Shown here: piece by piece, positions 32,799 through 64,000 of the stretch | How positions within the stretch are numbered: position 1 is the first letter of the stretch | How the letters are laid out: the number at the start of each line of letters is the position of its first letter | Assembly: GCA_016177705.1 (NCBI GenBank) | Contig: JACOUT010000005.1 | Coordinates: forward strand, 30,374-94,373 | Direction: 5' to 3' | Length of the DNA stretch: 64,000 bases | From: Deltaproteobacteria bacterium | GTDB lineage: Bacteria > Myxococcota > UBA727 > VGSZ01 | Position numbers and translations under genes: made by a program | The notes under the pieces: model-generated | What the model was told of the DNA's origin: nothing | The model's database searches: none | The model's input: the letters and a program-made list of their open reading frames with translations, nothing else

Positions 32799-35017
<2,219 letters not shown>

Positions 35018-41322: not shown

Positions 41323-41324
41323 GA

Positions 41325-42683: not shown

Positions 42684-42785
42684 GGGGCCTTCTCGGACGG
42701 CGCCACCTCGAGGTCAACCGGGACGCGCGCGGCGCGCTGCGGCGGCGAGGTGCGCCGCGGCGGCACCCTGGGGTAGACCTGCCCG

Positions 42786-44150
42786 GTGCTGGTCCCGCTC
42801 TCGTCCTTGCTGATGGTCGGTTGGCTCGCCGCTGCGCCCGGCATCTCCGAGGTCGTGCGCACCAAGAGCGCCAACGCAACCTTCACCGACGCGTTCGAGC
42901 TGCGCTTGGTGGACGGCAAGATCTGGTGGCGCCCGCGCTCGACGACCGCGTCGGCGCTCGAGCCATGGACGCTGTTCCCCAAGGACGGCGTGCCGACGCC
43001 GCCGAGCAAGCTCGCGGCCGTCAAGGAGCGGCTCGGCCTGCGCGGCACCGTCCGCGCCGGCGCCTTCGATGCGGCCGCGCGCCTCGTCGCCATCGCGGCC
43101 GACGGCGACGATCTGGTCGCCGTCGACGAGCGGCAGCGCGTCTACACCACCCGCCTCGACCGGGTGCGCTGGTCCGATCGGTTCGCGCCCGGCCCACGCG
43201 GCGCGCCCTTGCGCGTGCCGAGCGGATCCCGGATCGCGATGAGCGTGCGTCGCCAGCCCTACCTCGACGTTGACGGCAACGCCCACGCGCCCGATGGCGA
43301 GGTCGCGACGCTGTACGCGCTCACCAGCGACGGCGCGCGTCTCTTGTTCAGCGACCGTCGAGACAAGAACCGCCTCGAGGACGAGCTGTGCTTGCCGGAG
43401 CGCGGCGCGTTTCGCGGCGCTGCGCTGGCGGCCACCGCGTCGACCGTCGCCGTGCTTGACGACGCCGGACGCGTGTTCACGCGGCTCGCCGACTACGACA
43501 GCCTCGGTCACGACGGGCACGCGTTCTACTCGTGGCGCCGCGAGCGCCGCACCGGCGCGCGCAGCGAGGTGCGCTCGTTGCCGCCCGAGCCGTGGCGCGA
43601 GCAGCCGCCATTGCCCGGTCCGTTCGCGCGTGAGCTCACGGTGCTGGCCGCCGGCCCGAGCGCGGGCGCGCGCGAGCTGCGCGTGCCGACCGACGGTGGC
43701 TACTTTCACAAGCCGATGCAGGGCGGCGCTTGGGCCAAGGTGGTCACGGGGGTCGCCCGCCACGACGTGGCACCGGCCGCCGCGCTACCGACACGCGGGC
43801 CGAGGCGGACCAAGATGCTTCCCGGCGCCATTTGGCACGGCGCGAGCACGAGGCTGCAGCAGTTCGATCCGGTGTGCCCGCCGGCCGAGGTGGTGGTCGA
43901 GCGCGACGGCGAGCGTGTGATGCTCGAGTTGTGGATGCGCGAGAACCTCGAGCGCCTGGCGCACGGCCGAGAGCTGTCGGGCGCGCTCGTGCTGCCGGCG
44001 TCGGCGAAGGGCGCGCTCGCCACCGACCTGCGCGCGCTGCTCGGCGACACCACGGTCGAGGTCAAGATCGACATCGACGAGCGGCGCGTCTCCGTGCGCT
44101 CCGCCAACCGCACCCGCTCCGAGCCGCGACTGAACTTCACGCGCCGTTGA
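42786..44150 (+). CDS. secreted hypothetical protein
   Basis: Hydrophobic N-terminus 'MLVPLSSLLMVGWLAAAPG'; 454 aa. Confidence 0.55.
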   Translation: MLVPLSSLLMVGWLAAAPGISEVVRTKSANATFTDAFELRLVDGKIWWRPRSTTASALEPWTLFPKDGVPTPPSKLAAVKERLGLRGTVRAGAFDAAARLVAIAADGDDLVAVDERQRVYTTRLDRVRWSDRFAPGPRGAPLRVPSGSRIAMSVRRQPYLDVDGNAHAPDGEVATLYALTSDGARLLFSDRRDKNRLEDELCLPERGAFRGAALAATASTVAVLDDAGRVFTRLADYDSLGHDGHAFYSWRRERRTGARSEVRSLPPEPWREQPPLPGPFARELTVLAAGPSAGARELRVPTDGGYFHKPMQGGAWAKVVTGVARHDVAPAAALPTRGPRRTKMLPGAIWHGASTRLQQFDPVCPPAEVVVERDGERVMLELWMRENLERLAHGRELSGALVLPASAKGALATDLRALLGDTTVEVKIDIDERRVSVRSANRTRSEPRLNFTRR

Positions 44151-47769: not shown

Positions 47770-49209
47770 CTATCGCAGCAGCTCGCCTGCGCGCGCCCGC
47801 CTGATGAACTGCCCGCCGCCCTTGGCCTGCTGGCTGCCCTTGTCGACGACAATACGGCCGCGCGAGATGACCGTGTCGGGATAGCCCTTGACGGTGAAGC
47901 CCTCGAACGCCGAGTAGTCCACCCGCATGCGGTGCGTCCGCGGGTTGTTGACGCTGATGGTCTCGGTGCGGTTGGGGTCGAAGACCACGATGTCGGCGTC
48001 GGACCCGACCGCGATGGTGCCCTTCCGGGGGAACAGGCCGAAGATCTTGGCCGCGAACGTGGAGGTGACCTCGACGAAGCGGTTGAGCGACAGTCGGCCC
48101 TCGACCACGCCGCCCTGGTACATGAGCGCCATGCGGTTCTCGACGCCGGGAGCGCCGTTCGGGATCTTGTTGAAGCCCGCGCGGCCGAGCTCCTTGCCCG
48201 GGCGTTCGGGCGACGGGTCGCCAGGCTTCCAAGTGCCGTTGAAGAAGAAGGGGCAGTGGTCGGTGGCCACCGAGTGCACGTGGTGGAGCCTGAGCCCCTG
48301 CCACAGCGCGTCTTGGTTCCCCTTCTCGCGCAGCGGCGGCGACATGACCCACTTGGCGCCCTCGAAGCCGCCGTTGCCCTCGCTCAGGTAGGCGCTCTCG
48401 TCGAGGAACAGGTACTGCGGGCAGGTCTCGGCGTGCACGTCGACGCCGCGCATCCTACCGAGCTTGATCTGCTCGAGCCCGTCGGCCGACGACAGGTGCA
48501 CGATGTACAGCGAGGCGCCAGCCAGCTCGGCGATGGCGATGGCGCGGTGCACGCTCTCGGCCTCCATGCGCGTCGGCCGCGTCCTGGCATGCCAGATGGG
48601 TGCGAGCTTCTTGTCCTGCACCGCGCCCTTGATGATCTCGTCGATGACGATGCCGTTTTCGGCATGGAGGCACACGCGCGAGCCGTCGGCGCCGGCCTGC
48701 CGGAAGGCGCGGTAGAGTGTGCCGTCGTCGGCGTAGAGCACGCCGGGGTACGCCATGAACATCTTGTACGAGGTGACGCCGTCGTCGGCGAGCCGCCGCA
48801 TCTCCGAGATGCGCTCCTCCGGCATGTCGGTGAGGATCATGTGGAACGCGTAGTCGATGGCCGCCTTGCCCTCGGCCTTCTTGTGCCAGGCGTCGAGCCC
48901 TTCGAGGGCGCTCTTGCCGCGCGTCTGGATGGCGTAGTCGATGATGGTCGTGGTGCCGCCGAAGGCGGCCGCGACCGTGCCGGTGTCGAAGTCGTCCGAT
49001 GAGAAGGTGCCACCGAAGGGCATGTCCATGTGCGTGTGCGGATCGATGCCGCCCGGGATCACCAGCTTGCCGGTGGCGTCGAGAACGGTTTCGGCCTTGA
49101 CCGCGAGGTCCTTGCCGATCTGCTTGACGGTGCCGCCGTCGACGAACACGTCGGCGAAGTAGTCGTCGGTGGCGGTGATGACGCGGCCATTCTTGATGAG
49201 CAGGCTCAT
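47770..49209 (-). CDS. dihydropyrimidinase / D-hydantoinase (cyclic amidohydrolase)
   Basis: 'IPGGIDPHTHMDMPFGG', 'VHLSS', C-terminal 'GSDADIVVFDP' typical of the family. Confidence 0.9.
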   Translation of the reverse strand: MSLLIKNGRVITATDDYFADVFVDGGTVKQIGKDLAVKAETVLDATGKLVIPGGIDPHTHMDMPFGGTFSSDDFDTGTVAAAFGGTTTIIDYAIQTRGKSALEGLDAWHKKAEGKAAIDYAFHMILTDMPEERISEMRRLADDGVTSYKMFMAYPGVLYADDGTLYRAFRQAGADGSRVCLHAENGIVIDEIIKGAVQDKKLAPIWHARTRPTRMEAESVHRAIAIAELAGASLYIVHLSSADGLEQIKLGRMRGVDVHAETCPQYLFLDESAYLSEGNGGFEGAKWVMSPPLREKGNQDALWQGLRLHHVHSVATDHCPFFFNGTWKPGDPSPERPGKELGRAGFNKIPNGAPGVENRMALMYQGGVVEGRLSLNRFVEVTSTFAAKIFGLFPRKGTIAVGSDADIVVFDPNRTETISVNNPRTHRMRVDYSAFEGFTVKGYPDTVISRGRIVVDKGSQQAKGGGQFIRRARAGELLR

Positions 49210-49281
49210 GGAAGCACCTCGGCGCAGAGGTGACTCCAAAAGCGAAGGCCGCGCAATCAGGCGCGACCGGCGCGACGCGCG

Positions 49282-51555: not shown

Positions 51556-53355
51556 CTACAGCCCGAGCCGCGCGTTCACCTCGGCCTTGGTGCGCTGGCC
51601 TTGCGCCTCGAGCCGCGCGCGCGCCGCCGCGATCTCGCCACGCGCGCTCACCCTCGCCACCAGCTCGTCGTACAGCTTGATCTTGGGCTCTGTGCCCGAG
51701 GGGCGCACCGTCAGGCGCGCGCCGTCCTCGGTGTGCAGCACCACCACGTCCGCCGGGTTGCCGTCCCTCGCCAGATCGTCGACGCGCACCACCTTCTTGC
51801 CGTCGAGCACGGCCGGTGGATCCTTGCGCAACGCCGCCATCGCGCCCTTGATGCGCTCCATGCCCGAGGCGCCGGGCATGGTCACCGACCAGTTGACGGC
51901 GTGCGACAGGCCGTGCGCGACGAACAGCTCCTCGAGCCGGTCGAGCACGGTCTTGCCCTCCGCCTTGAGCGCGCGCGCCAGCTCGGCGAAGCGCACGGCG
52001 GCGCCGATGCCGTCCTTGTCTTTCACCAGCGGGCCCACCGAGTAGCCGAGCGCCTCCTCGTAGCCGCACACGAAGTGCTCGCCGTGCGGCGCCCGCTCCA
52101 TGGCCTTGTTGGCGATCCACTTGAAGCCGGTGAGCGTCTCGGCGTACGCGGCGCCCTTGTCCTTGGCCATGCGTGACAAGAACGTCGACGACACGATGGT
52201 GGTGACGACGAGCTTCTTGCCGGCGCCCACCGGCAGCGGCTGGTGGTCGAGCGCGTCGGCGCACAGCAGCATGCCGATCTCGTTGCCCGACAAGAGCCGA
52301 TAGGCGCCGTCCGTCGCAACGGCGACCGCCAGTCGATCGGCGTCGGGGTCGTTGGCGAGGATCAGCTCGGCGCCGGCCTCCTTGGCGACCGCGATGGCGC
52401 GGTCGAGCGCGCCCTTCTCCTCGGGGTTGGGAAACGCCACCGTGCGGAAGGTGCCGTCGGGATCGGCCTGGGTCGGCTCGTCGATGACGCCGAGAAAGCC
52501 GGCCTCGGCGAGCGCTCGCAGCGCCAGACGATGACCGACGCCGTGCATGGCGGTGTAGACGATGCGCAGCGGCGCGCCGCCGGCCGACGCGCGGTGCCAA
52601 GCCAAGCCGCGCACGGCGTCGAGGTAGGCGCGCTCGACGTCGTCGGCGACCAGCCTGCGCACGCCGCGCGCCGCGGCGTCAGGTGGTGCCACGCGCTCGA
52701 TCGCGTTCGGCGCGGGCGCCTTGGTGATGCAGGCGGCGATGCCGGAGTCGTGCGGCGGGATGATCTGCGCCGCGTTGGCCCAGTAGACCTTGTAGCCGTT
52801 GTCGGCCGGCGGATTGTGGCTCGCGGTCACCATGACACCGGCGGCGGCGCCGAGCTGCTCGACGGCGAACGCGCACAAAGGGGTCGGCACCGGGTCGAGG
52901 AAGACGAGTGCAGGGACGCCCTGCGCCGCCAGCACCGCGCAGGTGTCCTCGGCGAATTGGCGCGACGACAGGCGGCCGTCGAAGCCGACCACCACGCCGC
53001 GCTTGCGGGCGTCGACGCCGAAGCGCGCGCCCTCGTCGAGCAGGTAGCGGCCCACGCCCCAGCTCGCCTGCATGACCACGCTGCGGTTCATGCGGGCGCT
53101 GCCCGCCTCGACGCGCCCGCGCAGGCCCGCCGTGCCGAAGCTCAGCGTGCCGGCGAAGCGCTCGACGAGGTCGGCGCCGGCCGCGTCGTCGCCGGCCTCG
53201 GCGCGAGCGAGCAACGCCGACAGCTCGGCCCTGGTCTCCGGGTCCGGATCCTCGGCGAGGAACTTGCGCGCGCGCGCCAGCGTCTCAGTCAACTTCCCTG
53301 TGCTGGTCCCTGTGCTGGTCCCTGTGCTGGTCCCTGTGGTCGATCCTGCGGCCAT
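51556..53355 (-). CDS. alpha-D-phosphohexomutase (phosphoglucomutase/phosphomannomutase family, PgcA-like)
   Basis: 'VTASHNPPADNGYKVY' active-site loop (phosphoserine), 'GFDGR', C-terminal domain conserved. Confidence 0.85.
   Translation of the reverse strand: MAAGSTTGTSTGTSTGTSTGKLTETLARARKFLAEDPDPETRAELSALLARAEAGDDAAGADLVERFAGTLSFGTAGLRGRVEAGSARMNRSVVMQASWGVGRYLLDEGARFGVDARKRGVVVGFDGRLSSRQFAEDTCAVLAAQGVPALVFLDPVPTPLCAFAVEQLGAAAGVMVTASHNPPADNGYKVYWANAAQIIPPHDSGIAACITKAPAPNAIERVAPPDAAARGVRRLVADDVERAYLDAVRGLAWHRASAGGAPLRIVYTAMHGVGHRLALRALAEAGFLGVIDEPTQADPDGTFRTVAFPNPEEKGALDRAIAVAKEAGAELILANDPDADRLAVAVATDGAYRLLSGNEIGMLLCADALDHQPLPVGAGKKLVVTTIVSSTFLSRMAKDKGAAYAETLTGFKWIANKAMERAPHGEHFVCGYEEALGYSVGPLVKDKDGIGAAVRFAELARALKAEGKTVLDRLEELFVAHGLSHAVNWSVTMPGASGMERIKGAMAALRKDPPAVLDGKKVVRVDDLARDGNPADVVVLHTEDGARLTVRPSGTEPKIKLYDELVARVSARGEIAAARARLEAQGQRTKAEVNARLGL
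53296..53340. repeat. 12-bp tandem repeat 'ccctgtgctggt' x3.75, encoding (TSTG)n at the N-terminus of the phosphohexomutase
   Basis: Read directly; gives '[13 protein letters not shown]' in the minus frame. Confidence 0.85.
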
Positions 53356-53440: not shown

Positions 53441-54676
53441 ATGAGACGACGGATGAACAGCGTGCCCACCTTCCTGGCGGGCGTCCTCGTCGGGCTGGTC
53501 TTGGCCGCGGGCGGCGGCGTGGCGCTCGCCGCCGGCAACGTCGACGCCGCCTACCAGAAGCTGCGCGTGTTCTCGCAGGTGCTCACCTACGTGCAGCAGA
53601 GCTACGTCGACGAGGTGGACGGCGACGAACTGGTCTACGACGCGGTGGTCGGCATGCTGTCGGGCCTCGATCCGCACACCGTCTTCATGCGCCCCGCCGA
53701 GTACGAGAAGCTGCGCGAGGACACGGTGGGCGAGTTCGGCGGCCTCGGCATCGAGGTCGGCGTGGCCGGCGACGTCATCCAGGTGGAGGTGGTGCACGCC
53801 GAGAGCCCGGGCGCGCACGCGGGGCTGCGCCCGGGTGATCGCATCATCGCGGTCGACAACGAGAGCCTGCGCGGCCAGCCCATCGAGGCGAGCGTGCGGC
53901 TGATGCGCGGGCTGCCGGGCACGCGCGTGGTGCTGACCGTCGAGCGCAAGGGCTGGGAGCGCCCACGCGACATCCCGCTGGTGCGCCGTCAGGTGCGGGT
54001 CCCCTCGGTGGATCTCGAGGATCTCGGTGACGGCGTCGCCTACGTGCGCGTGCGCGCGTTCCAAGAACGCACCGACTTCGAGCTGTCGAAAGCGCTGGCC
54101 GAGGCGCGGCGCAGCGCCAAGGCGGCCGGCCGCGAGCTTCCCGCCGGGCTGGTGCTCGATCTGCGCGACAACCCGGGCGGCCTGCTCGACGAGGGCGTGC
54201 GCGTCGCCGACCGCTTCCTGGCCGAGGGGATCATCGTCACCACCAAGGGGCGCAACCCCCGCAACACCGAGGTGGAGAACGCGCGCCCCGACGGCACCGA
54301 GCCCGGCTACCCCATCGCGATCCTGGTCAACGACGGCACCGCGTCGGCCAGCGAGATCGTCGCCGGCGCCCTGCAGGACCACCACCGCGCGGCCGTGGTC
54401 GGCACGCGCACCTTCGGCAAGGGATCGGTGCAGACCCTGTTCGGCCTAGACGACGGCGCCGGCCTCAAGCTGACCATCGCGCGCTACTTCACGCCGAGCG
54501 GCCGCTCCATCCAGGACGTCGGCATCGAGCCCGATCTGGCGGTGCGTCCCGCCGACGAGCTGCCGGCCGGCCTCAAGGGGGCGGAGCGCGCCAAGCGCGA
54601 TCCCCAGGTGGCGGCGGCGCTCGACGCCCTCCGCCGGGGGCCGAAAAACCTCGCGCGTGGCCAAAAGGACGGATGA
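53441..54676 (+). CDS. ctpA: carboxyl-terminal processing protease (S41A) with PDZ domain
   Basis: Signal anchor, PDZ 'GLRPGDRIIAVDNESL', catalytic 'NDGTASASEIVAGAL', 'GTRTFGKGSVQT'. Confidence 0.85.
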   Translation: MRRRMNSVPTFLAGVLVGLVLAAGGGVALAAGNVDAAYQKLRVFSQVLTYVQQSYVDEVDGDELVYDAVVGMLSGLDPHTVFMRPAEYEKLREDTVGEFGGLGIEVGVAGDVIQVEVVHAESPGAHAGLRPGDRIIAVDNESLRGQPIEASVRLMRGLPGTRVVLTVERKGWERPRDIPLVRRQVRVPSVDLEDLGDGVAYVRVRAFQERTDFELSKALAEARRSAKAAGRELPAGLVLDLRDNPGGLLDEGVRVADRFLAEGIIVTTKGRNPRNTEVENARPDGTEPGYPIAILVNDGTASASEIVAGALQDHHRAAVVGTRTFGKGSVQTLFGLDDGAGLKLTIARYFTPSGRSIQDVGIEPDLAVRPADELPAGLKGAERAKRDPQVAAALDALRRGPKNLARGQKDG

Positions 54677-54687
54677 GGCGCGCGCCG

Positions 54688-54720
54688 CAGTGCCTTCTCA
54701 GTGCCTTCTCAGTGCCTTCG
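54688..54720 (+). promoter_or_regulatory. 3 x 11-bp direct repeat 'cagtgccttct' in the intergenic region upstream of the T3SS block
   Basis: Read directly at 54688-54720, 12 nt after the ctpA stop and ~170 nt upstream of the ATG at 54891. Confidence 0.6.
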
Positions 54721-54890
54721 AAGAGGCTATGGCTATCGTGTGCCGCGTGGCGCAGATCGGATGGCGCTGGCGGTCGATGTAGGACAGCGGCGCCACGCCG
54801 CCGATTGCCTCTTGGCGTCACCCCGCCGACGCGACGTATGATGCCGTTGGACCAACAGCCTCTCCACCCCGGACTCTCGTCGACAGCACC

Positions 54891-56861
54891 ATGGCCGCCT
54901 TCAAGCTGATCATCGAAGACGACGCCGGCAAGCAGATCATCGTGCCGTTCGCCAAGGACGTGATCACGATCGGTCGCAAGGAGGGCAATACCATCCGCCT
55001 GACCGAGCGGAACGTGTCGCGCAAGCATGCGCGGCTCTCCAAGGAGAACGGTCATGTCCTGGTAGAGGACCTGTCGAGCTACAACGGCATCCGGCTGAAC
55101 GGCGAGCGCATCACCGGGCGCGTGCAGGTCGCCGAGGGCGACACCATCCAGATCGGCGACTACCACCTCGCCATCCACGCGCAGGACGGGGCTGCCGCCA
55201 AGCCCGCAGGGTCCGGCGATCCGAACGAGACTGCGCAGATGCGCAGCGTGTCGGCGCCCACCACGATGGCGCCCGAGGATGACGAGTTTGCCGGCGATAC
55301 CCAGCGCTGGGAGGCTCCCGCCGACCTGTCCCCCGTGCCGGTCGGCTCGATGATGACGCAGGAGGAGCCCGCCATCCTGCCGACCGCCACGGCCGAGGAG
55401 ACCGTGCCGGGCCCGCATGCGGCTGGCGCCCCTACCGCCGACGGCAACCCGTTCCTCGGCGGCGGCGACACCGTGCGCGTGCCGTCGCCGTCGTCGCCGC
55501 TGTCGTCGCTCAACGCGGGCGCACCGTCGGCGATGCCCGCGCGCCGGCACGAGGTCGAGCTCGAGCCCACCGTGCGCCAGGTCGCGTCGCCCGCACCGGT
55601 CTCGGTGCCGGGCTCCGGCCATTTGGGAGAAGTCCCACGCCCGTCGTCCGCGCCGCCGGCAGCAGGCTCCGGCCCGAACCCGGCGCTCGCCGAGGACACC
55701 GCCACCGTGCGCGCGCCACCGGCGCCCGACGAGGACGTCGCCCAGCCGCGGCTGGTGGTGCTGAACACCATCTTCGCCGGCAGCGTGTTCCCGCTGCGCT
55801 CCACCGAGCAGGTGATCGGCCGCACCGACGAGAACGACATCACCGTCGAGCACCGCTCGGTGTCGCGCAACCACGCCAAGCTGGTGCGCGAGGGCGACCG
55901 CGTGCGCATCCTCGACCTGAAGAGCGCCAACGGCGTGCTGGTCAACGACGAGGAGGTCGAACAGCAGGTCTTGCAGTCAGGCGACGTCATCGAGCTCGGT
56001 CGCGTGCGATTGCGCTTCGTTCCGGTGGGCGAGCGCTTCGCCGTGCCGGCCGACGAGATCGAGCGCGCGCGCCTGGCGGACGCCGCGGGCGACGACTTCG
56101 AGAGCGACGCCAGCACCGGCATCACCAACCCGGTGCGGCCCAAGAAGAGCCTGCACTCGGACGCCGACCTGGTGCTACCGACGTCTGGCCTGGGCATGCG
56201 CAAGCTGCCGGTGCCGGTGTTGGCAGGCGCCGGGGTGCTTTTGCTGCTGCTCGTCGTCATCGTGGTGCTGTTGGCGCGCGGTGGCAGCGACGAGCAGCCG
56301 GCGGTGACGCCGCTGCCGCCCGGCGACCCACGCGTGGCGGTCATCGACAAGCCGGCCCCACCCACGCCGCCGGCCGACCCCGCGGCGACCGCGCCGACGC
56401 CGACGCCACCGGTCGCCGACCCCGCCGTGCCCGACCCGGTCGCCGCCGACCCCGCCGTGCCGGCGCCGGTCGGCGACCCAACGCCCGATCCCGCGCCGGA
56501 TCCGATCGACGCCACGCCCGATCCCGATCCCGGCGCGACGCGTCCGCCCGACCCGAACCGGGTGCGCAAGCCGCCCCCGGCCGAGCCGCGCATGTCCAAG
56601 GCGGACATCGAGAGCGCCATCACCGAGGCACGCAAGTTCTACGTGCAGGGCAAGCACGACAAGGCGATCGAGACCATCAAGCCGGTGACCAAGGCGGACA
56701 AGAACAACGCCACCGCGTGGAAGCTGCTCGGCATGGCCGCCCAGAAGCTCAACCGCTTGCAGACCATGTGCGGCGCCTACGGTGAGCTGCTGCGCCTGCA
56801 ACCGAGCGGGCCCGACGCCGAACAGGCACGCAGCAACCGCAAGACGGCGAACTGCAAATGA
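54891..56861 (+). CDS. FHA-domain inner-membrane protein, candidate T3SS SctD/YscD-like (2 FHA, TM helix, Pro-rich periplasmic part, TPR)
   Basis: Two FHA cores ('ITIGRKEGNTIRLTERNVSRKHARL', 'VIGRTDENDITVEHRSVSRNHAKL'), TM 'LPVPVLAGAGVLLLLLVVIVVLLA', Pro-rich repeats 'PAVPDPVAADPAVPAPVGDP'; 4-nt overlap with sctN. Confidence 0.65.
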   Translation: MAAFKLIIEDDAGKQIIVPFAKDVITIGRKEGNTIRLTERNVSRKHARLSKENGHVLVEDLSSYNGIRLNGERITGRVQVAEGDTIQIGDYHLAIHAQDGAAAKPAGSGDPNETAQMRSVSAPTTMAPEDDEFAGDTQRWEAPADLSPVPVGSMMTQEEPAILPTATAEETVPGPHAAGAPTADGNPFLGGGDTVRVPSPSSPLSSLNAGAPSAMPARRHEVELEPTVRQVASPAPVSVPGSGHLGEVPRPSSAPPAAGSGPNPALAEDTATVRAPPAPDEDVAQPRLVVLNTIFAGSVFPLRSTEQVIGRTDENDITVEHRSVSRNHAKLVREGDRVRILDLKSANGVLVNDEEVEQQVLQSGDVIELGRVRLRFVPVGERFAVPADEIERARLADAAGDDFESDASTGITNPVRPKKSLHSDADLVLPTSGLGMRKLPVPVLAGAGVLLLLLVVIVVLLARGGSDEQPAVTPLPPGDPRVAVIDKPAPPTPPADPAATAPTPTPPVADPAVPDPVAADPAVPAPVGDPTPDPAPDPIDATPDPDPGATRPPDPNRVRKPPPAEPRMSKADIESAITEARKFYVQGKHDKAIETIKPVTKADKNNATAWKLLGMAAQKLNRLQTMCGAYGELLRLQPSGPDAEQARSNRKTANCK

Positions 56862-58267
56862 TCTCGGCGAAACAGTCGCTCGAGGAGAACCTGGTTGGCG
56901 ACAAGCGGGGCGACCTGCCCGCCGGCAAGGTCATCGAGCTGCGCCGCGCCATCGAGGAGATCCGAGACGCCAAGCCGTACCGCGTGCGCGGCCGTGTCAC
57001 CGAGGTCACCGGCCTGATCATCAAGGCCGCGGTGCCGGGCGTGCGTATCGGCGAGATGTGTTACGTGACGTCGCCCAAAGAGGACACCGCACCGCTCAAG
57101 ACCGAGGTGGTCGGCTTCAAGGACGGCGCCGTCTTCTTGATGCCGCTCGGCGACGCCAAGAACGCCGGCCTTGGCCCCGACAGCGAGGTCATCCCCTCCG
57201 GCAAGCCCTTCCAGGTCAAGTGTGGCTTTGGCCTGCTTGGCCGCACGCTGTCGGGCATCGGCGAGCCCATCGACGGCCTCGGCCCGCTCGACGAGATCGA
57301 GGGCTTGCAGGACTGGGCGGTCGAGCGCGAGTGCCCCGATCCCTACACGCGCCAACCCGTCGACCGCGTCATCTCCTTCGGCGTGCGCGCGTGGGACGGC
57401 CTGCTTACCGTCGGGCGCGGCCAGCGCGTCGGCCTCTTCGCAGGCTCGGGCGTCGGTAAGTCGACCTTGATGGGGCAGATCGCGCGCCAGACCTCAGCCG
57501 AGGTGGTGGTCGTCTGCATGGTCGGCGAGCGCGGCCGCGAGGTGCTCGAGTTCATCCACGACTCGCTCGGCGAGGAGGGTCTCAAGCGCTCGGTGGTGGT
57601 GTGCGCCACGTCCGACCAGCCGAGCTTGGTACGCCTCAAGAGCACCTTCGTCGCCACCGCGGTCGCCGAGTGGTTCCGCGATCAGGGCAAGGACGTGCTG
57701 TTCATGATGGATAGCGCCACGCGCTTTGCGCGCGCGCAGCGCGAGATCGGCCTCGCCCTCGGTGAGCCACCGGCGCGCCAGGGATTCCCGCCCAGCGTGT
57801 TTGCGCTCATCCCCAAGCTGATGGAGCGCACCGGCAACAACCACATCGGCAGCATCACCGCCATGTACACCATCCTGGTGCAGGGCGGCGACATGGAGGA
57901 GCCCATCGCCGACGAGGTGCGCGGTATCCTCGACGGCCACGTCATCTTGAACCGCGACCTCGGCGCCCGAAACCACTGGCCCGCCATCGACGTGCTGCCC
58001 TCGCTGTCGCGCGTCATGAGCGGCATCGCCTCCGATGAGCATAAGAAGGCCGCAGGCATCATGCGGCGCACCATGGCGACCTACGAGAAGAACCGCGATC
58101 TGATCCTGCTCGGCGCCTACAGCTACGGCACCGATCCCAAGGTCGACTACGCCATCGACAAGATCGAGGAGGTCGAGACCTTCTTGAGGCAGGGCACCTA
58201 CGAGTCCTCGCCCTTCGAGGAGACGGTGCAGCGCATGGTCGACATGTTTGCCGACGCGCAGGAGTGA
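56858..58267 (+). CDS. sctN: type III secretion system ATPase (SctN/YscN/FliI family)
   Basis: Walker A 'GSGVGKSTL', 'VLFMMDSATRFARAQREIGLALGEPP', 'SITAMYTILVQGGD'. Confidence 0.9.
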   Translation: MISAKQSLEENLVGDKRGDLPAGKVIELRRAIEEIRDAKPYRVRGRVTEVTGLIIKAAVPGVRIGEMCYVTSPKEDTAPLKTEVVGFKDGAVFLMPLGDAKNAGLGPDSEVIPSGKPFQVKCGFGLLGRTLSGIGEPIDGLGPLDEIEGLQDWAVERECPDPYTRQPVDRVISFGVRAWDGLLTVGRGQRVGLFAGSGVGKSTLMGQIARQTSAEVVVVCMVGERGREVLEFIHDSLGEEGLKRSVVVCATSDQPSLVRLKSTFVATAVAEWFRDQGKDVLFMMDSATRFARAQREIGLALGEPPARQGFPPSVFALIPKLMERTGNNHIGSITAMYTILVQGGDMEEPIADEVRGILDGHVILNRDLGARNHWPAIDVLPSLSRVMSGIASDEHKKAAGIMRRTMATYEKNRDLILLGAYSYGTDPKVDYAIDKIEEVETFLRQGTYESSPFEETVQRMVDMFADAQE

Positions 58268-58650
58268 AGTGCTTCCACCACCCTGACGCGGACGCGGTGG
58301 GCCTGTGCAAAGCCTGCGGCAAGGGCCTGTGCCGGTCGTGCGCCGTCGACATGGGGCAGGGGCTCGCCTGCGCCAACTCCTGCGAGGTCGCGGTGCGCGA
58401 CCTCATCGTGCAGCTCGCCATCAGCAGGAAGGCGCTCGCGACGACGCCGGGCGCCTACAAGACGCAGTCGACCATCGGCTTCGTCACCGGCGGCATCTTC
58501 ATGGCCACCGCCGGGCTGGCGGCGCTCACGCCCGCGTGGTTCGTGGCGCCCCTGCTCGCCCTCTTCGGCTTGCCCATGATCTACCAGGGCGTGCGCGCGC
58601 GGCGGACCTATCGTTCGCTCGTCGCTGCGCACAAGGAACTACCTCCCTAG
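58264..58650 (+). CDS. small zinc-ribbon (B-box-like Cx2Cx5Cx2C) membrane protein embedded in the T3SS block
   Basis: 'MKCFHHPDADAVGLCKACGKGLCRSCAVDMGQGLACANSCE' then 2 TM helices; GTGA overlap with sctN. Confidence 0.5.
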   Translation: MKCFHHPDADAVGLCKACGKGLCRSCAVDMGQGLACANSCEVAVRDLIVQLAISRKALATTPGAYKTQSTIGFVTGGIFMATAGLAALTPAWFVAPLLALFGLPMIYQGVRARRTYRSLVAAHKELPP

Positions 58651-58667
58651 CTTGCTAGGATCGCCTC

Positions 58668-59180
58668 ATGGCCAAGACGCCTGCCTACCGCCTGCAAGTC
58701 CTCTTCGAGATGCGCGAGAAGAAGAAGAAGGAAGCGGAGGAGCTGTACGCCGAGAAGAAGAAGAAGGTCGTCGAGGAGCAGAAGAAGCTCGACGGCATGA
58801 AGCAGACGCTCAAGGAGATGGTGCAGCTCCGCCAGGACAAGAAGCGCGAGTACGCAGAGCGCACCCGCGCGGGCGAGTACACCGTGAGCCAGATCACAGC
58901 GAATGATCGCCACGTCGAGCGTTTGAAGCAGCAGGAGCAGGCCTACCAAGTGGAGATCGACCGTCAGGCGGAGCGTGTGCAGGAAGCCGAGCGCATCGCC
59001 CAGGAGGCGATGGACGCGCTCGTCAAGGCGACGCAGGACCACAAGGCGCTCGAGAAGCACAAGGACAAGTGGCTCAAGGCGGTCAGGCGCGAGGCCGCGA
59101 TGAAGGAGGAGCTGCAGGTCGAGGACATCGCGCAGGCGCAGTACTTCCAGAAGCTCCTCGAAGAGCTGGGCGAGGCGTGA
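58668..59180 (+). CDS. coiled-coil stalk protein, SctO/YscO/FliJ-like
   Basis: 170 aa all-helical K/E/Q-rich, positioned immediately after the ATPase as in T3SS loci. Confidence 0.5.
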   Translation: MAKTPAYRLQVLFEMREKKKKEAEELYAEKKKKVVEEQKKLDGMKQTLKEMVQLRQDKKREYAERTRAGEYTVSQITANDRHVERLKQQEQAYQVEIDRQAERVQEAERIAQEAMDALVKATQDHKALEKHKDKWLKAVRREAAMKEELQVEDIAQAQYFQKLLEELGEA

Positions 59181-59182
59181 CC

Positions 59183-59455
59183 ATGGGGCCCCTGGTCGGC
59201 AAGGTGCTGCTCGAGATCGCCAAGGCGCTCGGCAAGGCCGTCATCGCCGGCGTGGGCGTGGAGCTGGCGCGCGTCGCCTCGGGGCATGTGCAGAAGCGCT
59301 TCGGGCCCAAGACTGGGAAGGACGAGAAGAAGCCCGAAGAGATGACGCCCGACGAGCTGAAGAAAGAAAACGAACGCCTGCGCGCCGAGGTAGAGGAGCT
59401 GAAAGAGCGGCTCGGCACCTCGACCGTGCCGCCGGACGTGGCCATAGGCAGCTAG
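59183..59455 (+). CDS. small T3SS-associated hypothetical protein (hydrophobic N-terminus plus coiled coil)
   Basis: ATG 2 nt after the sctO-like stop: 'MGPLVGKVLLEIAKALGKAVIAGVGVELARV...ENERLRAEVEELKERL'. Confidence 0.35.
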   Translation: MGPLVGKVLLEIAKALGKAVIAGVGVELARVASGHVQKRFGPKTGKDEKKPEEMTPDELKKENERLRAEVEELKERLGTSTVPPDVAIGS

Positions 59456-59540
59456 GCGCCCGCGAGAGACGCATCGCGTCAAGACCGATCGCGGCCGCCG
59501 TCCGATACTTCGACGGTCAACCGCTCTCTCGGGGTTCCCC

Positions 59541-60467
59541 ATGTCCAGCAGAGTCGACGAGCAGAACGCGCAGGCGGCAGCCGAAGCGGAGCGCGTGGCC
59601 CAGAAGGCCGACAAGCAGGCGCGCGAGGCCAAGACCAGCCAAACGAGCCGCGAAGCGTTCTCCAAGCTGGTCAAGGCGAACCAGCAGGGCTCGGACGTGC
59701 ACCGGGGCAAGGCGGAGAAGCAGCAGGGCGAGACGCGGCAGGGGGAGGCGCATGCGCAGAAGCAGGTGAAGGGCTCCGAGCAGGCCGATCGCGCCGCCAG
59801 GATGGCGCGCGGCGGCGTGATGCAGCACTCGCGCGTGATGGAGCAGGCCAAGAGCTTCTCGCAGGTGCTCGGCAAGCAGCAGACCGAGACCGCGCAGGCC
59901 GACGGCCAGCGCGTCGAGGCGCGTGAGCAGGGCAGCACGAAGGATCGGGTGGAGCGCGACGACCGCGACCGCGACGTCGGCGCGACCGAGGTGAAGAGGG
60001 AGAGCGAGCGGGAACAGGCGCGCGTGGAGGCGCGCGACGGCGGCGCACAAGGTGGCCCCGTCGACCCCGACGGCAAGAACCGCGGTGGCGGCGGCAAGCA
60101 GCAAGGCCGTGGCGATGAGGGGGCGGCAGCGCTGGCCGCGCTCAGCAAGCCGTCGACGCCGCAAGCCGCCGCGGGCCCGCAGGGCGCGGTGGGCGTCAAG
60201 CAGATCCCGCCCGAGCTGCTCGAGAAGCTGGTGAGCGCGATCTACCTGGCCGTCAACGACAAGGGACTCAAGGAATTCCAGATCGAGCTGAAGGACGGAC
60301 CGCTCAAGGGCGGCTTCCTCAAGCTCACTGCCGACGGCGGCAAGGTCAGCCTGTCCTTCCTCGGGCTCGCCGGCGATCAGAAGCGGCTGGTGGAGGCGAG
60401 CAAGGGCGAGCTGATGCGCCGGTTGGAGAAAAAGGGCCTCCGTCTGGAACGCCTGTCCGTCGCGTGA
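59541..60467 (+). CDS. T3SS length-control/substrate-switch protein candidate (SctP/FliK-like with T3S4-type C-terminal domain)
   Basis: Q/E/R-rich disordered N-terminus; C-terminus 'FQIELKDGPLKGGFLKLTADGGKVSLSFLGLAGDQKRLVEASKGELMRRLEKKGLRLERLSV' follows the FliK/YscP C-terminal pattern. Confidence 0.5.
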   Translation: MSSRVDEQNAQAAAEAERVAQKADKQAREAKTSQTSREAFSKLVKANQQGSDVHRGKAEKQQGETRQGEAHAQKQVKGSEQADRAARMARGGVMQHSRVMEQAKSFSQVLGKQQTETAQADGQRVEAREQGSTKDRVERDDRDRDVGATEVKRESEREQARVEARDGGAQGGPVDPDGKNRGGGGKQQGRGDEGAAALAALSKPSTPQAAAGPQGAVGVKQIPPELLEKLVSAIYLAVNDKGLKEFQIELKDGPLKGGFLKLTADGGKVSLSFLGLAGDQKRLVEASKGELMRRLEKKGLRLERLSVA

Positions 60468-60522
60468 GCACTGCCGCTGGCCCGGAAAGCTGCTAGAGCC
60501 GTTCGACCTGAACGGAGGCAGC

Positions 60523-61629
60523 GTGCAGTCGATCGGGACACCCGCCTTGTGGGTCGCCTTCACCGCCGTAGTGACGGTGGTGCTGGTCGCCGACCTCTAC
60601 GTCGGCAGCAAGAAGACCGAGCCGATGTCGCGCCGCGCCGCGCTCGGCTGGACCTCGTTGTGGGTGTCGCTCGCGTGCGCGTTCGGCGCCGGTATCTGGT
60701 TGGTGATCGACCACGATCGCTCGCGCGAAGCGGCGATGGAGTTCTTCACCGCCTACATCATCGAGTACTCGCTCTCCGTCGATAACCTCTTCGTCTTCTT
60801 GCTGCTGTTCTCGTCGTTCAAGGTGCCGCAGGCCTGGCAGCACCGCGTGTTGTTCTGGGGCATCTTCGGCGCCGTCATCCTGCGCGCCATCTTCATCTTC
60901 GCAGGTACTGCGCTGTTGCAGCGCTTCCACTTCCTCATCTACCTGTTCGGCGCGTTCTTGCTCTACACCGGCGTCAAGCTGGTATTCGGCGGCGAAGACG
61001 AAGAGGAGGTCGAAGTCAGCGAGAACCGCATCGTGCGCTTCGCGCGGCGCTTCGTGCCGGTGACTGATCATTACGACGGGCACCGCTTCGTCACCGTCGT
61101 CGACGGCGTCAAGAAGGCGACGCCGCTGCTGCTCGTGTTGGTGGCGGTCGAGCTATCCGACGTGGTGTTCGCGCTCGACTCGATCCCGGCGGTGTTCGGC
61201 GTCTCCCTCGATCCCTTCATCGTCTACACCTCGAACATCTTTGCCATCCTCGGCCTGCGCTCGCTCTATTTCTTGCTGGCGGGCGCGCTGTTCGGCCTGC
61301 GCTTCTTGAAGCCGTCGCTCGGCATCGTGCTCGCGTTCGTCGGCGCCAAGATGTGCCTGCCGCTGGTGCATTGGCTCGCGGCCAAAGCGGGTCAGGCGGA
61401 CGCGGTCTCCTGGCTGCCCGAGCACGTACCGACACCGGTGTCCCTTGGCGTGGTGGGCGGGTTCCTCGTCGGTGGCGTCGCGCTGTCAATGCTGTTCCCC
61501 GGCAAGAAGCCCGAGGGCGTCGAGGCCGCCGAGGAGATCAAAGAGGACATCCTCGAGGCGGTCACCGGCGAGCCGCAGCCGCACGAGCCGCCGAGTGGCG
61601 TCCCCCCCGGCGCCGCCGGTCCGGGGTAG
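60523..61629 (+). CDS. terC: TerC/Alx family integral membrane protein
   Basis: 'YIIEYSLSVDNLFVFLL', 'ALDSIPAVFGVSLDPFIVYTSNIFAILGLRSLYF' duplicated TerC motifs. Confidence 0.8.
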   Translation: MQSIGTPALWVAFTAVVTVVLVADLYVGSKKTEPMSRRAALGWTSLWVSLACAFGAGIWLVIDHDRSREAAMEFFTAYIIEYSLSVDNLFVFLLLFSSFKVPQAWQHRVLFWGIFGAVILRAIFIFAGTALLQRFHFLIYLFGAFLLYTGVKLVFGGEDEEEVEVSENRIVRFARRFVPVTDHYDGHRFVTVVDGVKKATPLLLVLVAVELSDVVFALDSIPAVFGVSLDPFIVYTSNIFAILGLRSLYFLLAGALFGLRFLKPSLGIVLAFVGAKMCLPLVHWLAAKAGQADAVSWLPEHVPTPVSLGVVGGFLVGGVALSMLFPGKKPEGVEAAEEIKEDILEAVTGEPQPHEPPSGVPPGAAGPG

Positions 61630-61641
61630 AGTCCGTCCACG

Positions 61642-63090
61642 ATGGCGAAGAAGCTGCGCAAGTACCGGCTGCAAGACCTGCCGCGGCTCACGCGCGAGCA
61701 GGTGCGGGCCACCAACGCGCTCTTGTGCCACCTGCCACAGACGCCGTTCGAACAAGGGTTCAAGAGCCGGCTGCGCGACCTCCTCTCGCAGCTCGTGCAC
61801 GCCGACGTCGACGTCTGGTTCGACGGTGCGCGCGCGCTCGCGCAAGGCGAGCTGAAGCGGGTGCTGGCCGAGCCGACCTGCGTTGCCGTCGTTGGGCTGC
61901 CGCCGCGCACGGACAAGGCGCTGCTCGAGGTCGACCTGACGGTGGCGCAGTTCGCCATCGACAAGATGCTGGGCGGCGGCGCCGAGGACGTCGACGGGCA
62001 GCGACCGCTCTCCGAGATCGAAGACGGCGTGTTCTCCTTCATCCTGCTCAAGGTCTTGCAGCTCGTCACCGCTGACCTCGAGGAGAGCCAGCTCGGCCTG
62101 CGCCTGGAGGCAGTGCACGGCACGCTGGCCTCGCTCAAGGAGCGCTACCCCACGTCGGACGCGTGCCTGTGCCTGAGCTTCAAGGTGTTCTTCAACCAGA
62201 AGGTCGGCTTCGCGCGCATCTACCTGCCGCTCGCCTTGCTGAGCGAGGCGCTGACGGGGGCGCCGCCCGAGGAGGGGCCGGCGCAGCAGCGCGCGTTCGC
62301 GCGCATGCAGCAGCGCATCGATCTGGTGCGGCTCGTCACGGCGCCGCTGGTGGTCGAGGTCGGGCGCATCACGCTGCCGGTGGCCGACGTCGAGGCGCTC
62401 GACACCGAGGACATCATCCTGGTCGAGGACAGCGAGCTGCGCCTCGAGCCCGGCGAGCCGCCCGCCTTGACCGGTCGTGCGCAATGCCGCGTGGGCGACG
62501 GCGCGCATGGCGTCCTGACCGGCACCGTCGTGGTAGGAGAGCGCGGCCGCTACGAGATCCAGGTGGAGGCGATCGCACCGGTGGGCACGCCGCGTCCGCG
62601 CGGCCACCTGTTCCTGGGTACGGTGGGCACGGGCGAGGGAGAGGCGGGAATGGCGAGCGAGCACGCGAGGGAGCTGTCGGCGCCGGGCATCGTCGACGAG
62701 GTGGAGCGGTCACTGCGCGCGCGTCGCGCCGTGGCCGTGCGCGCGCTCGCCGGCTCCACCTCGCCGCTCGGGCACGGCGGCGTCGACGACGAAACGGGTG
62801 CCGAGCACAGCGACAGTCAAGAGGAGCAGGGCGAGGACGACGGCGACAACATGCCGTCGGCGTCGGCCAGCCTGCTCGACGACGTCTCGGTGGCGCTGGT
62901 AGTGGAGCTTGGGCGCGTCTCGGTGTCCGCCGCGGACGTGGTGCAGCTTCGGCCGGGCCACGTCATCGAGCTGTCGAGGAAGCCCGGCGACGCGGTGGAC
63001 CTCGTGGTCGACGGCAAGCGCATCGGCAAGGGTGAGCTGGTCGAGGTCGACGGCGAGCTCGGGGTGCGCATCCTCTCGCTGGCGAAGTAG
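61642..63090 (+). CDS. sctQ: T3SS cytoplasmic sorting-platform protein SctQ (YscQ/FliM-FliN family, C-terminal SpoA domain)
   Basis: C-terminus 'VALVVELGRVSVSAADVVQLRPGHVIELSRKPGDAVDLVVDGKRIGKGELVEVDGELGVRI' matches the SpoA/FliN fold pattern. Confidence 0.7.
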   Translation: MAKKLRKYRLQDLPRLTREQVRATNALLCHLPQTPFEQGFKSRLRDLLSQLVHADVDVWFDGARALAQGELKRVLAEPTCVAVVGLPPRTDKALLEVDLTVAQFAIDKMLGGGAEDVDGQRPLSEIEDGVFSFILLKVLQLVTADLEESQLGLRLEAVHGTLASLKERYPTSDACLCLSFKVFFNQKVGFARIYLPLALLSEALTGAPPEEGPAQQRAFARMQQRIDLVRLVTAPLVVEVGRITLPVADVEALDTEDIILVEDSELRLEPGEPPALTGRAQCRVGDGAHGVLTGTVVVGERGRYEIQVEAIAPVGTPRPRGHLFLGTVGTGEGEAGMASEHARELSAPGIVDEVERSLRARRAVAVRALAGSTSPLGHGGVDDETGAEHSDSQEEQGEDDGDNMPSASASLLDDVSVALVVELGRVSVSAADVVQLRPGHVIELSRKPGDAVDLVVDGKRIGKGELVEVDGELGVRILSLAK

Positions 63091-63404: not shown

Positions 63405-63441
63405 CCATGAAATCACATTGATGGGAAACGTAATTTCATGG
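63405..63441. promoter_or_regulatory. AT-rich 9-bp inverted repeat 'ccatgaaat-N19-atttcatgg' overlapping the start codon of the downstream ATPase gene
   Basis: Read directly; a local AT island in a ~70% GC background. Confidence 0.5.
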
Positions 63442-64000
63442 ATGATCGTACCATGGTTGCACGCCCGCGCCACCTCGCCGACGTTCGACGGCTGCTCAAG
63501 TCCAACCCGATCGTCGCCCTGCTCGGCGCGCGGCAGACCGGCAAGACCACGCTCTCCCGTGAGGTCATCGGCGATCGATCGGCAACGCGTTTCGACCTCG
63601 AGTCTCCCCACGACAGCGAGCGGCTGCGCGATCCGACGCTCGCGCTCGCGCCGCTTCGCGGCTTGGTGGTGCTCGACGAGGTGCAGCGGCGACCGGACCT
63701 ATTTCCGGTGTTGCGGGTGCTCGCCGATCGGCCGCGCACCCAGGCGCGCTTCCTCGTCCTCGGCAGCGCCAGCGGCCAGCTGTTGCGGCAGACGTCCGAG
63801 TCGCTCGCCGGCCGCATCGCCTACCACGAGCTGCCGGGCTTCGCGCTCGATGAGGTCATGGCTACCGGCACGGGCGCGCACCTCAGGCTCTGGCGCCGCG
63901 GCGGGTTTCCCCGCTCGTTCCTCGCCAGGAGCGAGGCAGAATCAGCCCGATGGCGCGACGACTTCGTGCGCACCTTCCTCGAGCGCGATGTTGGCACGCT
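63438..64000 (+). CDS. AAA+ ATPase (COG1373/DUF4143-type), 5' part; runs off the window end
   Basis: 'VALLGARQTGKTTL' Walker A, 'VVLDEVQRRPDLFPVLRVL' Walker B region. Confidence 0.7.
   Translation, partial: MDDRTMVARPRHLADVRRLLKSNPIVALLGARQTGKTTLSREVIGDRSATRFDLESPHDSERLRDPTLALAPLRGLVVLDEVQRRPDLFPVLRVLADRPRTQARFLVLGSASGQLLRQTSESLAGRIAYHELPGFALDEVMATGTGAHLRLWRRGGFPRSFLARSEAESARWRDDFVRTFLERDVGT

Follow-up and report, generated by a model that had tools for sequence, protein, structure and literature searches.

Myxobacteria possess a secretion system of type III (T3SS) whose locus, called long or T3SS*, has been described as lacking a secretin, a needle and a translocon (PMC3459982, PMC10433427, PMC12075869). 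The system is functional in Myxococcus (PMC12075869) and, as the Myxo non-flagellar T3SS (NF-T3SS) of Abby & Rocha, it is found at the base of the non-flagellar systems in the published phylogeny (PMC3459982). Here, we analyse a 64,000-nucleotide stretch of contig JACOUT010000005.1 from a Deltaproteobacteria bacterium (the window), in which eight genes at 54891–63090 constitute a real and intact operon of this known system. The variant is new and is defined by two traits: terC, which encodes a TerC-family membrane protein, is linked to sctQ throughout a clade, and the ATPase SctN has a membrane-anchored partner with FHA and TPR domains.

The locus shares with the M. xanthus T3SS* (mxan_2434–2464; in Abby & Rocha, 2012, the locus of the 'long' Myxo NF-T3SS) the order sctN-sctO-sctP-sctQ-fliO-sctR-sctS-sctT, the gate part of which is taken from relatives. 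The two also have in common an SctP with a FliK/HpaP-type substrate-specificity-switch (T3S4) domain, an SctQ with FliM-like and SpoA parts, and the absence of secretin and needle genes from the vicinity. Unlike in M. xanthus, no sctI-sctJ-(FliG_C-like)-sctL genes are present upstream and the relatives are without sctU after sctT, while extra genes encode an FHA-FHA-TM-TPR protein (TM, transmembrane helix), a B-box-like protein, a 90-amino-acid protein and the TerC protein that precedes SctQ.

MeeF and MeeY, which are TerC proteins of Bacillus subtilis, act at the SecYEG translocon and metalate exported Mn enzymes (PMC10550928). The protein in the window resembles them: it is a membrane protein of the TerC family, shares their conserved acidic motifs and is tied to an exporter of unfolded proteins, which suggests metalation during or after translocation as a possible mechanism. 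The link in Bacillus is both physical and functional, is with Sec and involves genes outside a secretion operon, whereas here it is purely genomic and concerns a T3SS-type gate. Unlike YkoY/YceF, the present protein falls in the Alx subfamily of TerC (TIGR03718). Among the matches listed in a literature search, no paper joins TerC, T3SS and Myxococcota.

Organization of the operon

A sequence-only reading of the window had proposed a non-flagellar T3SS block of eight genes, and family searches find all eight co-oriented open reading frames (ORFs) in that order and at the same positions:

54891..56861, + strand: FHA-FHA-TM-(Pro-rich linker)-TPR inner-membrane protein, 656 aa (Pfam FHA and Yop-YscD_cpl; TPR matches in the PDB)
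56858..58267, + strand: SctN, T3SS ATPase of the FliI/YscN family (ATP-synt_ab and T3SS_ATPase_C, NCBIfam and PDB matches)
58264..58650, + strand: B-box-like zinc-finger protein, 128 aa, with a C-terminal two-helix membrane hairpin (weak zf-B_box match, Cys/His alignment)
58668..59180, + strand: SctO, YscO/FliJ-like coiled-coil stalk (Pfam YscO-like, 6.4e-19; weak FliJ match)
59183..59455, + strand: 90-aa ORF (homologues after sctO in relatives)
59541..60467, + strand: SctP/FliK-like T3S4 protein, 308 aa (Pfam matches of homologues, profile against the PDB, AlphaFold2 and Foldseek)
60523..61629, + strand: TerC/Alx-family membrane protein (TIGR03718, PF03741, signature motifs)
61642..63090, + strand: SctQ, sorting-platform/C-ring protein (Pfam FliM and FliMN_C; NCBIfam SpaO_YscQ)

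All eight ORFs are intact and have a coding-type composition, with a G+C content at third codon positions (GC3) of 0.91–0.94; the overall G+C content of the 64 kb window is about 71%. The successive junctions measure −4, −4, 17, 2, 85, 55 and 12 nt, so that the eight genes very probably form a single operon. The FHA gene overlaps sctN in the sequence ATGA, and sctN overlaps the zinc-finger gene in GTGA, the latter of which had been noted from the sequence. TerC and the B-box-like membrane protein are indeed non-canonical members of a T3SS block. The NCBI names in the block (MBI1946039–MBI1946044) include 'FHA domain-containing protein', 'FliI/YscN family ATPase' and 'hypothetical protein', the last of these being applied to the SctO, 90-aa and SctP-like genes. 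The 308 aa protein is identical to MBI1946044.1 (HYS27_10130).

The SctN-based scan of a genome collection yielded 80 loci, all of them Myxococcota-like, in which genes were mapped by tblastn; loci are referred to below by L numbers. SctN of the window is 65–67% identical to the T3SS* SctN of Myxococcaceae and Archangiaceae (about 50 loci, M. xanthus included), where the gene order is sctI-sctJ-(FliG_C-like)-sctL-sctN-sctO-sctP-sctQ-fliO-sctR-sctS-sctT-sctU. In the window, sctO, sctP (T3S4) and sctQ (SpoA) follow sctN in the same order as in Myxococcus, and this common N-O-P-Q core places the block in the myxobacterial non-flagellar T3SS lineage, in line with the class that the sequence-only reading had given it. 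On sequence and gene order, the block is orthologous to the needleless T3SS* locus of M. xanthus.

SctN scores 559 bits with TIGR01026 (cut-off 379.5) and matches T3SS_ATPase_C (PF18269) at 2.3e-25. It remains below both equivalog cut-offs, with 582.3 bits for SctN (TIGR02546; cut-off 604.75) and 569.8 bits for FliI_clade2 (cut-off 629.8), and its closest PDB matches, a T3SS ATPase (PDB entry 9e58), FliI and EscN, all score alike. Such near-equal SctN and FliI scores are in keeping with the basal place that published work gives the Myxo group. The placement of SctN rests on orthology and synteny with the Myxococcus T3SS* and on the published tree. SctQ consists of FliM-like N-terminal and middle parts and a C-terminal SpoA/FliN domain (Pfam FliM 1.2e-10, FliMN_C 5.6e-22), and its best NCBIfam match is SpaO_YscQ (4e-27). 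An internal Met before the SpoA domain was considered as a start for SctQ-C and was discarded, its position not being conserved.

terC is locked to sctQ in one clade

The TerC/Alx protein scores above the curated cut-off of its family (TIGR03718, 383 bits against a cut-off of 246.4; PF03741, 2.3e-50). The motifs ExSLSxDN and ExxDxxFAxDSxPA are intact and are 100% conserved in the sctQ-linked clade. A GGAGG Shine–Dalgarno sequence precedes terC, which ends 12 nt before sctQ. No Rfam family, the Mn-responsive yybP-ykoY riboswitch included, reaches its gathering score anywhere in the window; the gap between sctP and terC is 55 nt.

terC lies immediately upstream of sctQ in ten out of ten loci of one monophyletic clade, within which SctQ identity falls to 50%. 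Sampling TerC homologues by falling identity (50–89%) gives a similar picture: seven out of eight lie directly upstream of sctQ, all seven of them at an identity of at least 53%. The eight loci are arranged as follows:

L096, TerC 89% identical: full operon, terC directly before sctQ
L097, TerC 72%: full operon, terC directly before sctQ
L098, TerC 70%: terC-sctQ-fliO-sctRST as a separate operon
L099, TerC 66%: full operon, terC directly before sctQ
L100, TerC 63%: terC-sctQ-fliO-sctRST as a separate operon
L102, TerC 55%: sctO-sctP-terC-sctQ-fliO-sctRST, without sctN
L101, TerC 53%: sctP-terC-sctQ, two inserted genes, then fliO-sctRST
L103, TerC 50%: the sole unlinked case; this metagenome-assembled genome (MAG) also carries an orphan sctN (L014)

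Wherever the operon is split, terC thus stays with sctQ-fliO-sctRST. The terC/sctQ junction, which ranges from a 1 nt overlap to a 162 nt gap, is uninterrupted throughout. The places that do carry insertions or breaks are sctN/sctO, sctQ/fliO and the point upstream of terC.

A neighbour-joining tree of SctQ groups the ten TerC-positive loci as one monophyletic clade, outside which L012 and then L013/L084 branch off, and this implies one acquisition followed by retention while SctQ diverged to 50% identity. TerC and SctQ are correlated in their pairwise identities (r = 0.89). The sctQ-linked TerC clade comprises about 61 clusters at 90% identity, whose members exceed other TerC proteins in length by about 30 residues. 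The outgroup loci L012, L013 and L084 (SctN 78–81% identical) have the operon without terC, and no TerC is found in the sampled T3SS* loci of Myxococcaceae and Archangiaceae. The placement of terC, which had been put forward for checking in other myxobacterial T3SS loci, is therefore no local oddity, being kept before sctQ across one clade, and it does not extend to the sampled Myxococcaceae. An initial view of TerC as a recent insertion at the genus level, taken from tblastn anchored on SctN, was overturned by the genomic context of the TerC homologues.

The FHA-TM-TPR protein

The first protein of the operon has two FHA domains (Pfam FHA, 8.6e-35; Yop-YscD_cpl, 1.8e-32), a single transmembrane helix (residues 443–461) and a periplasmic part made up of a Pro-rich linker and about 70 residues of C-terminal TPR, with matches to consensus TPR proteins in the PDB down to 8e-22. 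The GR/SRxH/NG residues are kept in both FHA domains in nine out of nine aligned homologues, and the PDB matches of these domains are FHA domains of the GarA/OdhI/EmbR type. Judged from these residues, both domains look capable of reading phosphothreonine. Homologues are found directly upstream of sctN in nine loci (L003, L004, L011, L012, L013, L017, L084, L097 and L099), and the 4 nt overlap of the FHA stop codon with the sctN start is seen in the window, L097 and L099.

This protein had been called SctD-like. It has in common with SctD (YscD/PrgH/MxiG) an N-terminal cytoplasmic FHA fold, a single transmembrane helix and a place inside a T3SS locus. Unlike SctD, it has two FHA domains with the GR/SRxH/NG residues, and a Pro-rich linker and a short TPR stand in place of the ring-building domains. 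YscD and PrgH are absent from its PDB matches, and Pfam gives no match to Yop-YscD_ppl at E ≤ 0.01. The likeness is thus confined to the pattern of FHA followed by a transmembrane helix, and the SctD call does not hold. As the topology is that of SctD while the defining periplasmic feature is missing, we read the protein as a phosphorylation-responsive membrane partner of the ATPase.

Between the FHA domains lies an acidic motif, EDDEFAGDTQRWE, with a TQ site (residues 129–141; 55275–55313), which is conserved in the window, L003, L004, L011, L097 and L099. It is tempting to speculate that it serves as a phospho-site for the protein's own FHA domain in a GarA-like switch. Ser/Thr kinase genes directly adjoin T3SS-like genes in L019, L022, L023 and L102; in the window, L003 and L004 they lie nearby.

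FHA proteins in other secretion systems offer a parallel. Fha1/TagH, together with PpkA/PppA, controls the secretion system of type VI (T6SS) through threonine phosphorylation. KilD is an FHA protein of the Kil/Tad system of Myxococcus (PMC10433427). As in these systems, the FHA gene adjoins that of a secretion ATPase and Ser/Thr kinase genes are nearby. The present protein does not belong to these families, its scores being far below the cut-offs (NCBIfam TagH is a sub-threshold match at 2.1e-21), and it is membrane-anchored with a TPR.

A protein with a parallel layout is encoded in L008 (6995–8953, minus strand), divergent from an orphan sctN: its 653 residues comprise an N-terminal MJ0042-like zinc ribbon, which takes the place of the FHA domains, one transmembrane helix and a C-terminal TPR.

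The SctP-like protein and the two small proteins

In the 308 aa protein, a pair of long helices at the N-terminus is joined by a disordered linker to a T3S4 domain at the C-terminus (about residues 223–308). It has no direct Pfam match itself, its sequence being too diverged for the models, and phmmer against the PDB returns only noise. Among 18 homologous C-termini, however, Pfam Flg_hook is matched by 15 and HpaP by nine, and a profile of these C-termini has the FliK C-terminal domain (PDB entry 2RRL, E = 0.012) as its best sequence match in the PDB. In an AlphaFold2 model built with 43 homologues, the C-terminal domain has a predicted local distance difference test (pLDDT) score of about 88. 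Foldseek returns only two significant matches for this model, 2RRL (8.7e-5) and the substrate-specificity domain of PscP (PDB entry 5CUK, 4e-4, TM-score 0.68). The predicted structure thus upholds the FliK/SctP-like call made for 59541..60467 and identifies a T3S4 substrate-specificity-switch protein of the SctP/FliK type. FliK, YscP, PscP and HpaP share with it the C-terminal α/β domain and a long, helical and disordered N-terminal part. Since there is no needle or hook, a ruler function makes little sense.

The zinc-finger protein matches zf-B_box at 18.7 bits (E = 0.002), below the gathering threshold (GA) of 24.1. In an alignment of its family, seven Cys and one or two His positions are conserved or nearly so, and two hydrophobic helices are present. 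For an AlphaFold2 model (pLDDT 80), Foldseek finds nothing significant in the PDB. By profile search, the B-box-like two-TM family has 1866 representatives at E ≤ 1e-3, which corrects an earlier impression of a tiny family of 11 clusters; remote relatives have weak zf-B_box matches, one of them above the GA, and one relative lies in a sugar-metabolism context. Close homologues (59–64% identical) also follow sctN, with further genes inserted before sctO. The position after sctN is thus kept in close homologues, as the sequence-only reading had asked, while the slot between sctN and sctO is variable: it holds a PMT-family gene in L097, a 333 aa minus-strand gene in L099, and a methyltransferase gene or four small ORFs in other relatives.

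The 90 aa protein has a G/A-rich amphipathic N-terminus followed by a coiled coil with the motif ENERLxAEV, and has no family match in the NCBIfam search. Its homologues lie directly after sctO in L003, L004, L095, L097 and L099 and are clade-specific. For both the zinc-finger gene and the 90 aa ORF, a passenger role is quite plausible.

Gate genes and the sctQ/fliO junction

With SctI, SctJ, SctL, FliO, SctR, SctS, SctT and SctU from one Myxococcaceae locus as tblastn queries, their identities checked with Pfam, no match is found in the 64 kb window. Pfam likewise detects no T3SS, secretin or FHIPEP family in the other window ORFs that were scanned. The lack of secretin, needle and translocon families among these ORFs is a 'needleless' trait of the window only; no secretin or needle gene is found in about 100 related loci. 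A regular expression for the FHIPEP motif has no match in the DNA of the window and flanks, a weak negative, since in Myxococcaceae, too, SctV is encoded beyond the ±10 kb flanks.

Relatives show what follows sctQ:

L096 (same MAG as L003, SctN 95% identical): sctP-terC-sctQ-fliO-fliP(sctR)-Bac_export_3(sctS)-Bac_export_1(sctT), then unrelated genes
L083 (SctQ 87%, TerC 91%): as L096, with two minus-strand genes between sctQ and fliO
L085 (73%): sctQ directly followed by fliO-sctR

fliO-sctRST is also located downstream of sctQ in L097–L102. The sequence-only reading had found no export-gate genes in the window and had supposed them to lie downstream or to be absent. The first point stands, while absence is unlikely, as fliO-sctRST follows sctQ in the same genus-level group (L096 and L083).

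In the window, a non-coding interval of 350 nt follows sctQ; it contains an inverted repeat of low GC (63406–63440, CATGAAAT...ATTTCATG) and leads to a further gene:

63441..64000, + strand: ATPase of the AAA_14 (DUF4143) type, cut by the end of the window (Pfam AAA_14, 1.9e-22)

Homology downstream of sctQ is lost about 40 nt past the stop codon. In L083 the junction carries an ATPase_2/DUF234-HTH gene and an unknown gene (3830–6591), in L101 a LysR gene and one for 191 aa, and in L096 no insert. The sctQ/fliO junction looks like an insertion hot spot, and we read the AAA_14 gene as an insertion there and not as part of the machine. As the gene sits at a junction that carries inserts in relatives, fliO-sctRST is likely to be found just past the end of the window.

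Different genes are seen after sctT in some relatives: those for a 664 aa MlaD-domain protein and an OmpA-family protein in L013 (11759–14811) and L084 (12460–15572), and that for a 2763 aa TIG/β-helix/FG-GAP protein in L098 (15477–21122). Such proteins may be substrates of the machine or its partners in the envelope.

Remodelling of the operon among relatives

The SctN tree orders the loci in a series. Complete long loci are followed by loci that have lost sctI, sctJ and sctL and have a phosphoglucomutase (PGM) gene upstream (L015–L018). Next, the S41 peptidase and FHA genes are gained (L012, L013 and L084), and then TerC, the 90 aa ORF and the variable slot (the window clade, L097 and L099). 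Last in the series, sctN stands alone among housekeeping genes (L005–L010), and terC-sctQ-fliO-sctRST stands alone on the contigs of L098 and L100.

Orphan sctN genes, 80–87% identical to that of the window, are present in L005–L010, L014 and L019 (at about 10001–11380 of the full-length loci), with no other T3SS gene within ±10 kb. In L005 the neighbours are xth, a SUI1-like gene, a DUF2237-like gene, rplM and rpsI. Either the system is dispersed in these genomes or the ATPase has another job.

Upstream region and neighbouring genes

Upstream of the operon, an exact 11 bp tandem repeat (CAGTGCCTTCT, 2.9 copies, 54688–54719; Tandem Repeats Finder, 100% matches) corresponds to the direct repeat of three 11 bp units remarked on from the sequence. 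It is real and exact, and the 52 nt alignment stretch in which it lies has no counterpart in L003 and L004, the closest relatives; we therefore regard it as a local duplication with no demonstrable role. Three non-coding blocks on the + strand are instead largely invariant in the alignment of the window, L003 and L004:

54775–54792, + strand: conserved block CGATGTAGGACAGCGGCG
54806–54817, + strand: conserved block TGCCTCTTGGCG
54832–54846, + strand: conserved block CGACGTATGATGCCG

Together they are a candidate operon promoter or operator. The sequence TTGGCG-N19-TATGAT upstream of the FHA gene is a poor σ70 match, and a scan for σ70 promoters and terminators gives nothing above chance.

The preceding gene is probably its own transcription unit:

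53441..54676, + strand: S41 C-terminal-processing peptidase, PDZ and Peptidase_S41 (Pfam Peptidase_S41, 7.9e-53)

It precedes the FHA gene in eight out of eight loci with upstream sequence (L003, L004, L011, L012, L013, L084, L097 and L099). Those loci among L015–L018 that are without the FHA gene are also without the S41 gene, and have PGM directly upstream of sctN. In the window, the 5′ end of the minus-strand phosphoglucomutase ORF (51556–53355) contains a perfect 12 bp tandem repeat (TCCCTGTGCTGG, 3.7 copies, 53295–53348).

The other window ORFs comprise, according to Pfam, metabolic genes, two Ser/Thr kinases, the phosphoglucomutase, dihydropyrimidine-dehydrogenase-like genes and many unknowns. 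A PreA/PreT-like pair (40009–42713, DHO_dh and 4Fe-4S; 47770–49281, Fer4_20 and pyridine-nucleotide oxidoreductase) and a nearby amidohydrolase look like a reductive pyrimidine-degradation cluster. A 940 aa protein (2035–4857) consists mostly of RCC1 repeats (WD40_RLD, 1e-112). Large ORFs without a Pfam match are found at 8263–10773, 13748–15061, 15904–17430, 26911–28704, 32789–35017, 36468–38288 and 42777–44150.

Discussion

In our judgement the block is probably, though by no means certainly, the ATPase/sorting-platform operon of a clade-specific T3SS* variant that works as follows. SctN, SctO and SctQ would drive and sort unfolded substrates into a gate built on SctRST, with SctU and SctV encoded elsewhere, and the T3S4 protein would switch from one class of substrate to another. 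Produced along with SctQ and the gate proteins, TerC would export Mn2+, or a different divalent metal, next to the gate. There, substrates that reach the periplasm unfolded, which are probably lytic metalloenzymes, would be loaded with metal, by analogy with MeeF/MeeY at SecYEG. The FHA protein would anchor the ATPase or platform at the inner membrane, or gate it, upon phosphorylation by Ser/Thr kinases; it would take the topological place of SctD without being homologous to it. The B-box-like and 90 aa proteins would be lineage-specific accessories. The more specific proposal, in which TerC is a dedicated accessory subunit of a T3SS-type gate that loads metal on unfolded substrates and the FHA-TM-TPR protein replaces the SctD/SctK/SctL link, is tentative and, as a whole, rather doubtful.

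Several points weigh against this explanation. A role of TerC in metalating exported proteins is inferred by analogy, and the conserved adjacency of terC and sctQ can persist through operon inertia. The proximity of kinase genes is weak evidence because Myxococcota are rich in kinases. The scores of the hidden Markov models by themselves do not separate SctN from FliI for this ATPase. The window ends 0.9 kb after sctQ, so that the likely presence of fliO-sctRST in this genome is taken from relatives. Neither sctU, sctV, sctJ, sctL, sctD, sctI nor a secretin gene is found in the window or in the ±10 kb flanks of the clade, and with ring, stator, sctU and sctV missing from these regions a complete machine is assumed. 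Finally, the orphan sctN genes in sister lineages and the locus L011, which stops after sctO, could mean decay over dispersal.

The alternative that deserves most attention takes TerC, the zinc-finger protein and the 90 aa ORF as neutral co-transcribed insertions, TerC being simply the Alx protein of the cell's Mn or pH homeostasis. The locus is certainly prone to insertion, both between sctN and sctO (PMT, methyltransferase, the four small ORFs and the 333 aa gene) and between sctQ and fliO (ATPase genes), the family of the zinc-finger protein is large and generic, with one relative in a sugar-metabolism context, and the operons of L012, L013 and L084 manage without TerC. For TerC, however, a neutral passenger would have had to remain directly before sctQ in all ten loci, while SctQ diverged to 50% and through three or four independent operon splits, with overlapping stop and start codons in L097, L098 and L099 and with TerC and SctQ identities that co-vary; it would also be an Alx-type gene without the usual yybP-ykoY riboswitch. 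We regard this alternative as possible but not probable. It is unlikely that the block is instead a decaying relic, a fragment without gate, ring or stator whose ATPase has been taken over for another function. A relic would fit the replacement of sctI, sctJ and sctL upstream by PGM and the S41 peptidase, the absence of sctU and sctV after sctT in every relative, the orphan sctN genes and the truncated L011, but not the eight intact ORFs with GC3 above 0.9, the translational coupling that is kept or the retention of SctO, SctP, SctQ and R/S/T as modules. SctN is 86–95% identical across relatives in which SctQ is only 50–87% identical, which argues for dispersal under selection rather than decay. 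The same argument was rejected for Myxococcus on grounds of conservation (PMC3459982), where T3SS* is functional (PMC12075869).

That the FHA protein is a true SctD of a canonical injectisome, with secretin, needle and translocon just outside the window, is very improbable. Yop-YscD_cpl does match both FHA domains (1.8e-32), and the protein has one transmembrane helix and is encoded directly before sctN; but this family is itself akin to FHA, whose generic model reaches a score no lower, the residues look like those of phosphothreonine readers, the PDB matches are to GarA, OdhI and EmbR and not to YscD or PrgH, and in the periplasmic part, a Pro-rich linker and TPR, no YscD periplasmic domain is found. 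Moreover, secretin and needle genes are lacking throughout the related loci, and the Myxo group is known to be without them (PMC3459982). An origin of the ATPase and the FliM/FliN-like protein as remnants of a flagellar export apparatus is more improbable still. It could draw on the FliI_clade2 score of 570 bits against 582 for SctN, on the Pfam FliM match of SctQ and on the presence of FliO in relatives, yet no rod, hook, filament or motor genes are found in the window, the YscO-like, HpaP and PscP-type matches point the other way, and the orthologous Myxococcus T3SS* is basal non-flagellar in the published phylogeny (PMC3459982).

The series of loci documents a stepwise remodelling, from the loss of sctI, sctJ and sctL and the gain of FHA through insertion hot spots and the splitting of modules to orphan ATPases, and should be useful for thinking about the evolution of T3SS-derived machines. 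Prey lysis by myxobacteria requires their needleless T3SS*, and the lock between terC and sctQ offers a testable idea about its substrates: the fixed position of terC hints that the machine exports metal-dependent proteins. If true, a type III system would for the first time be coupled to a metallochaperone, the link between TerC and translocons would extend from Sec to a type III machine, and T3SS* would export metalloenzymes to the periplasm instead of injecting effectors.

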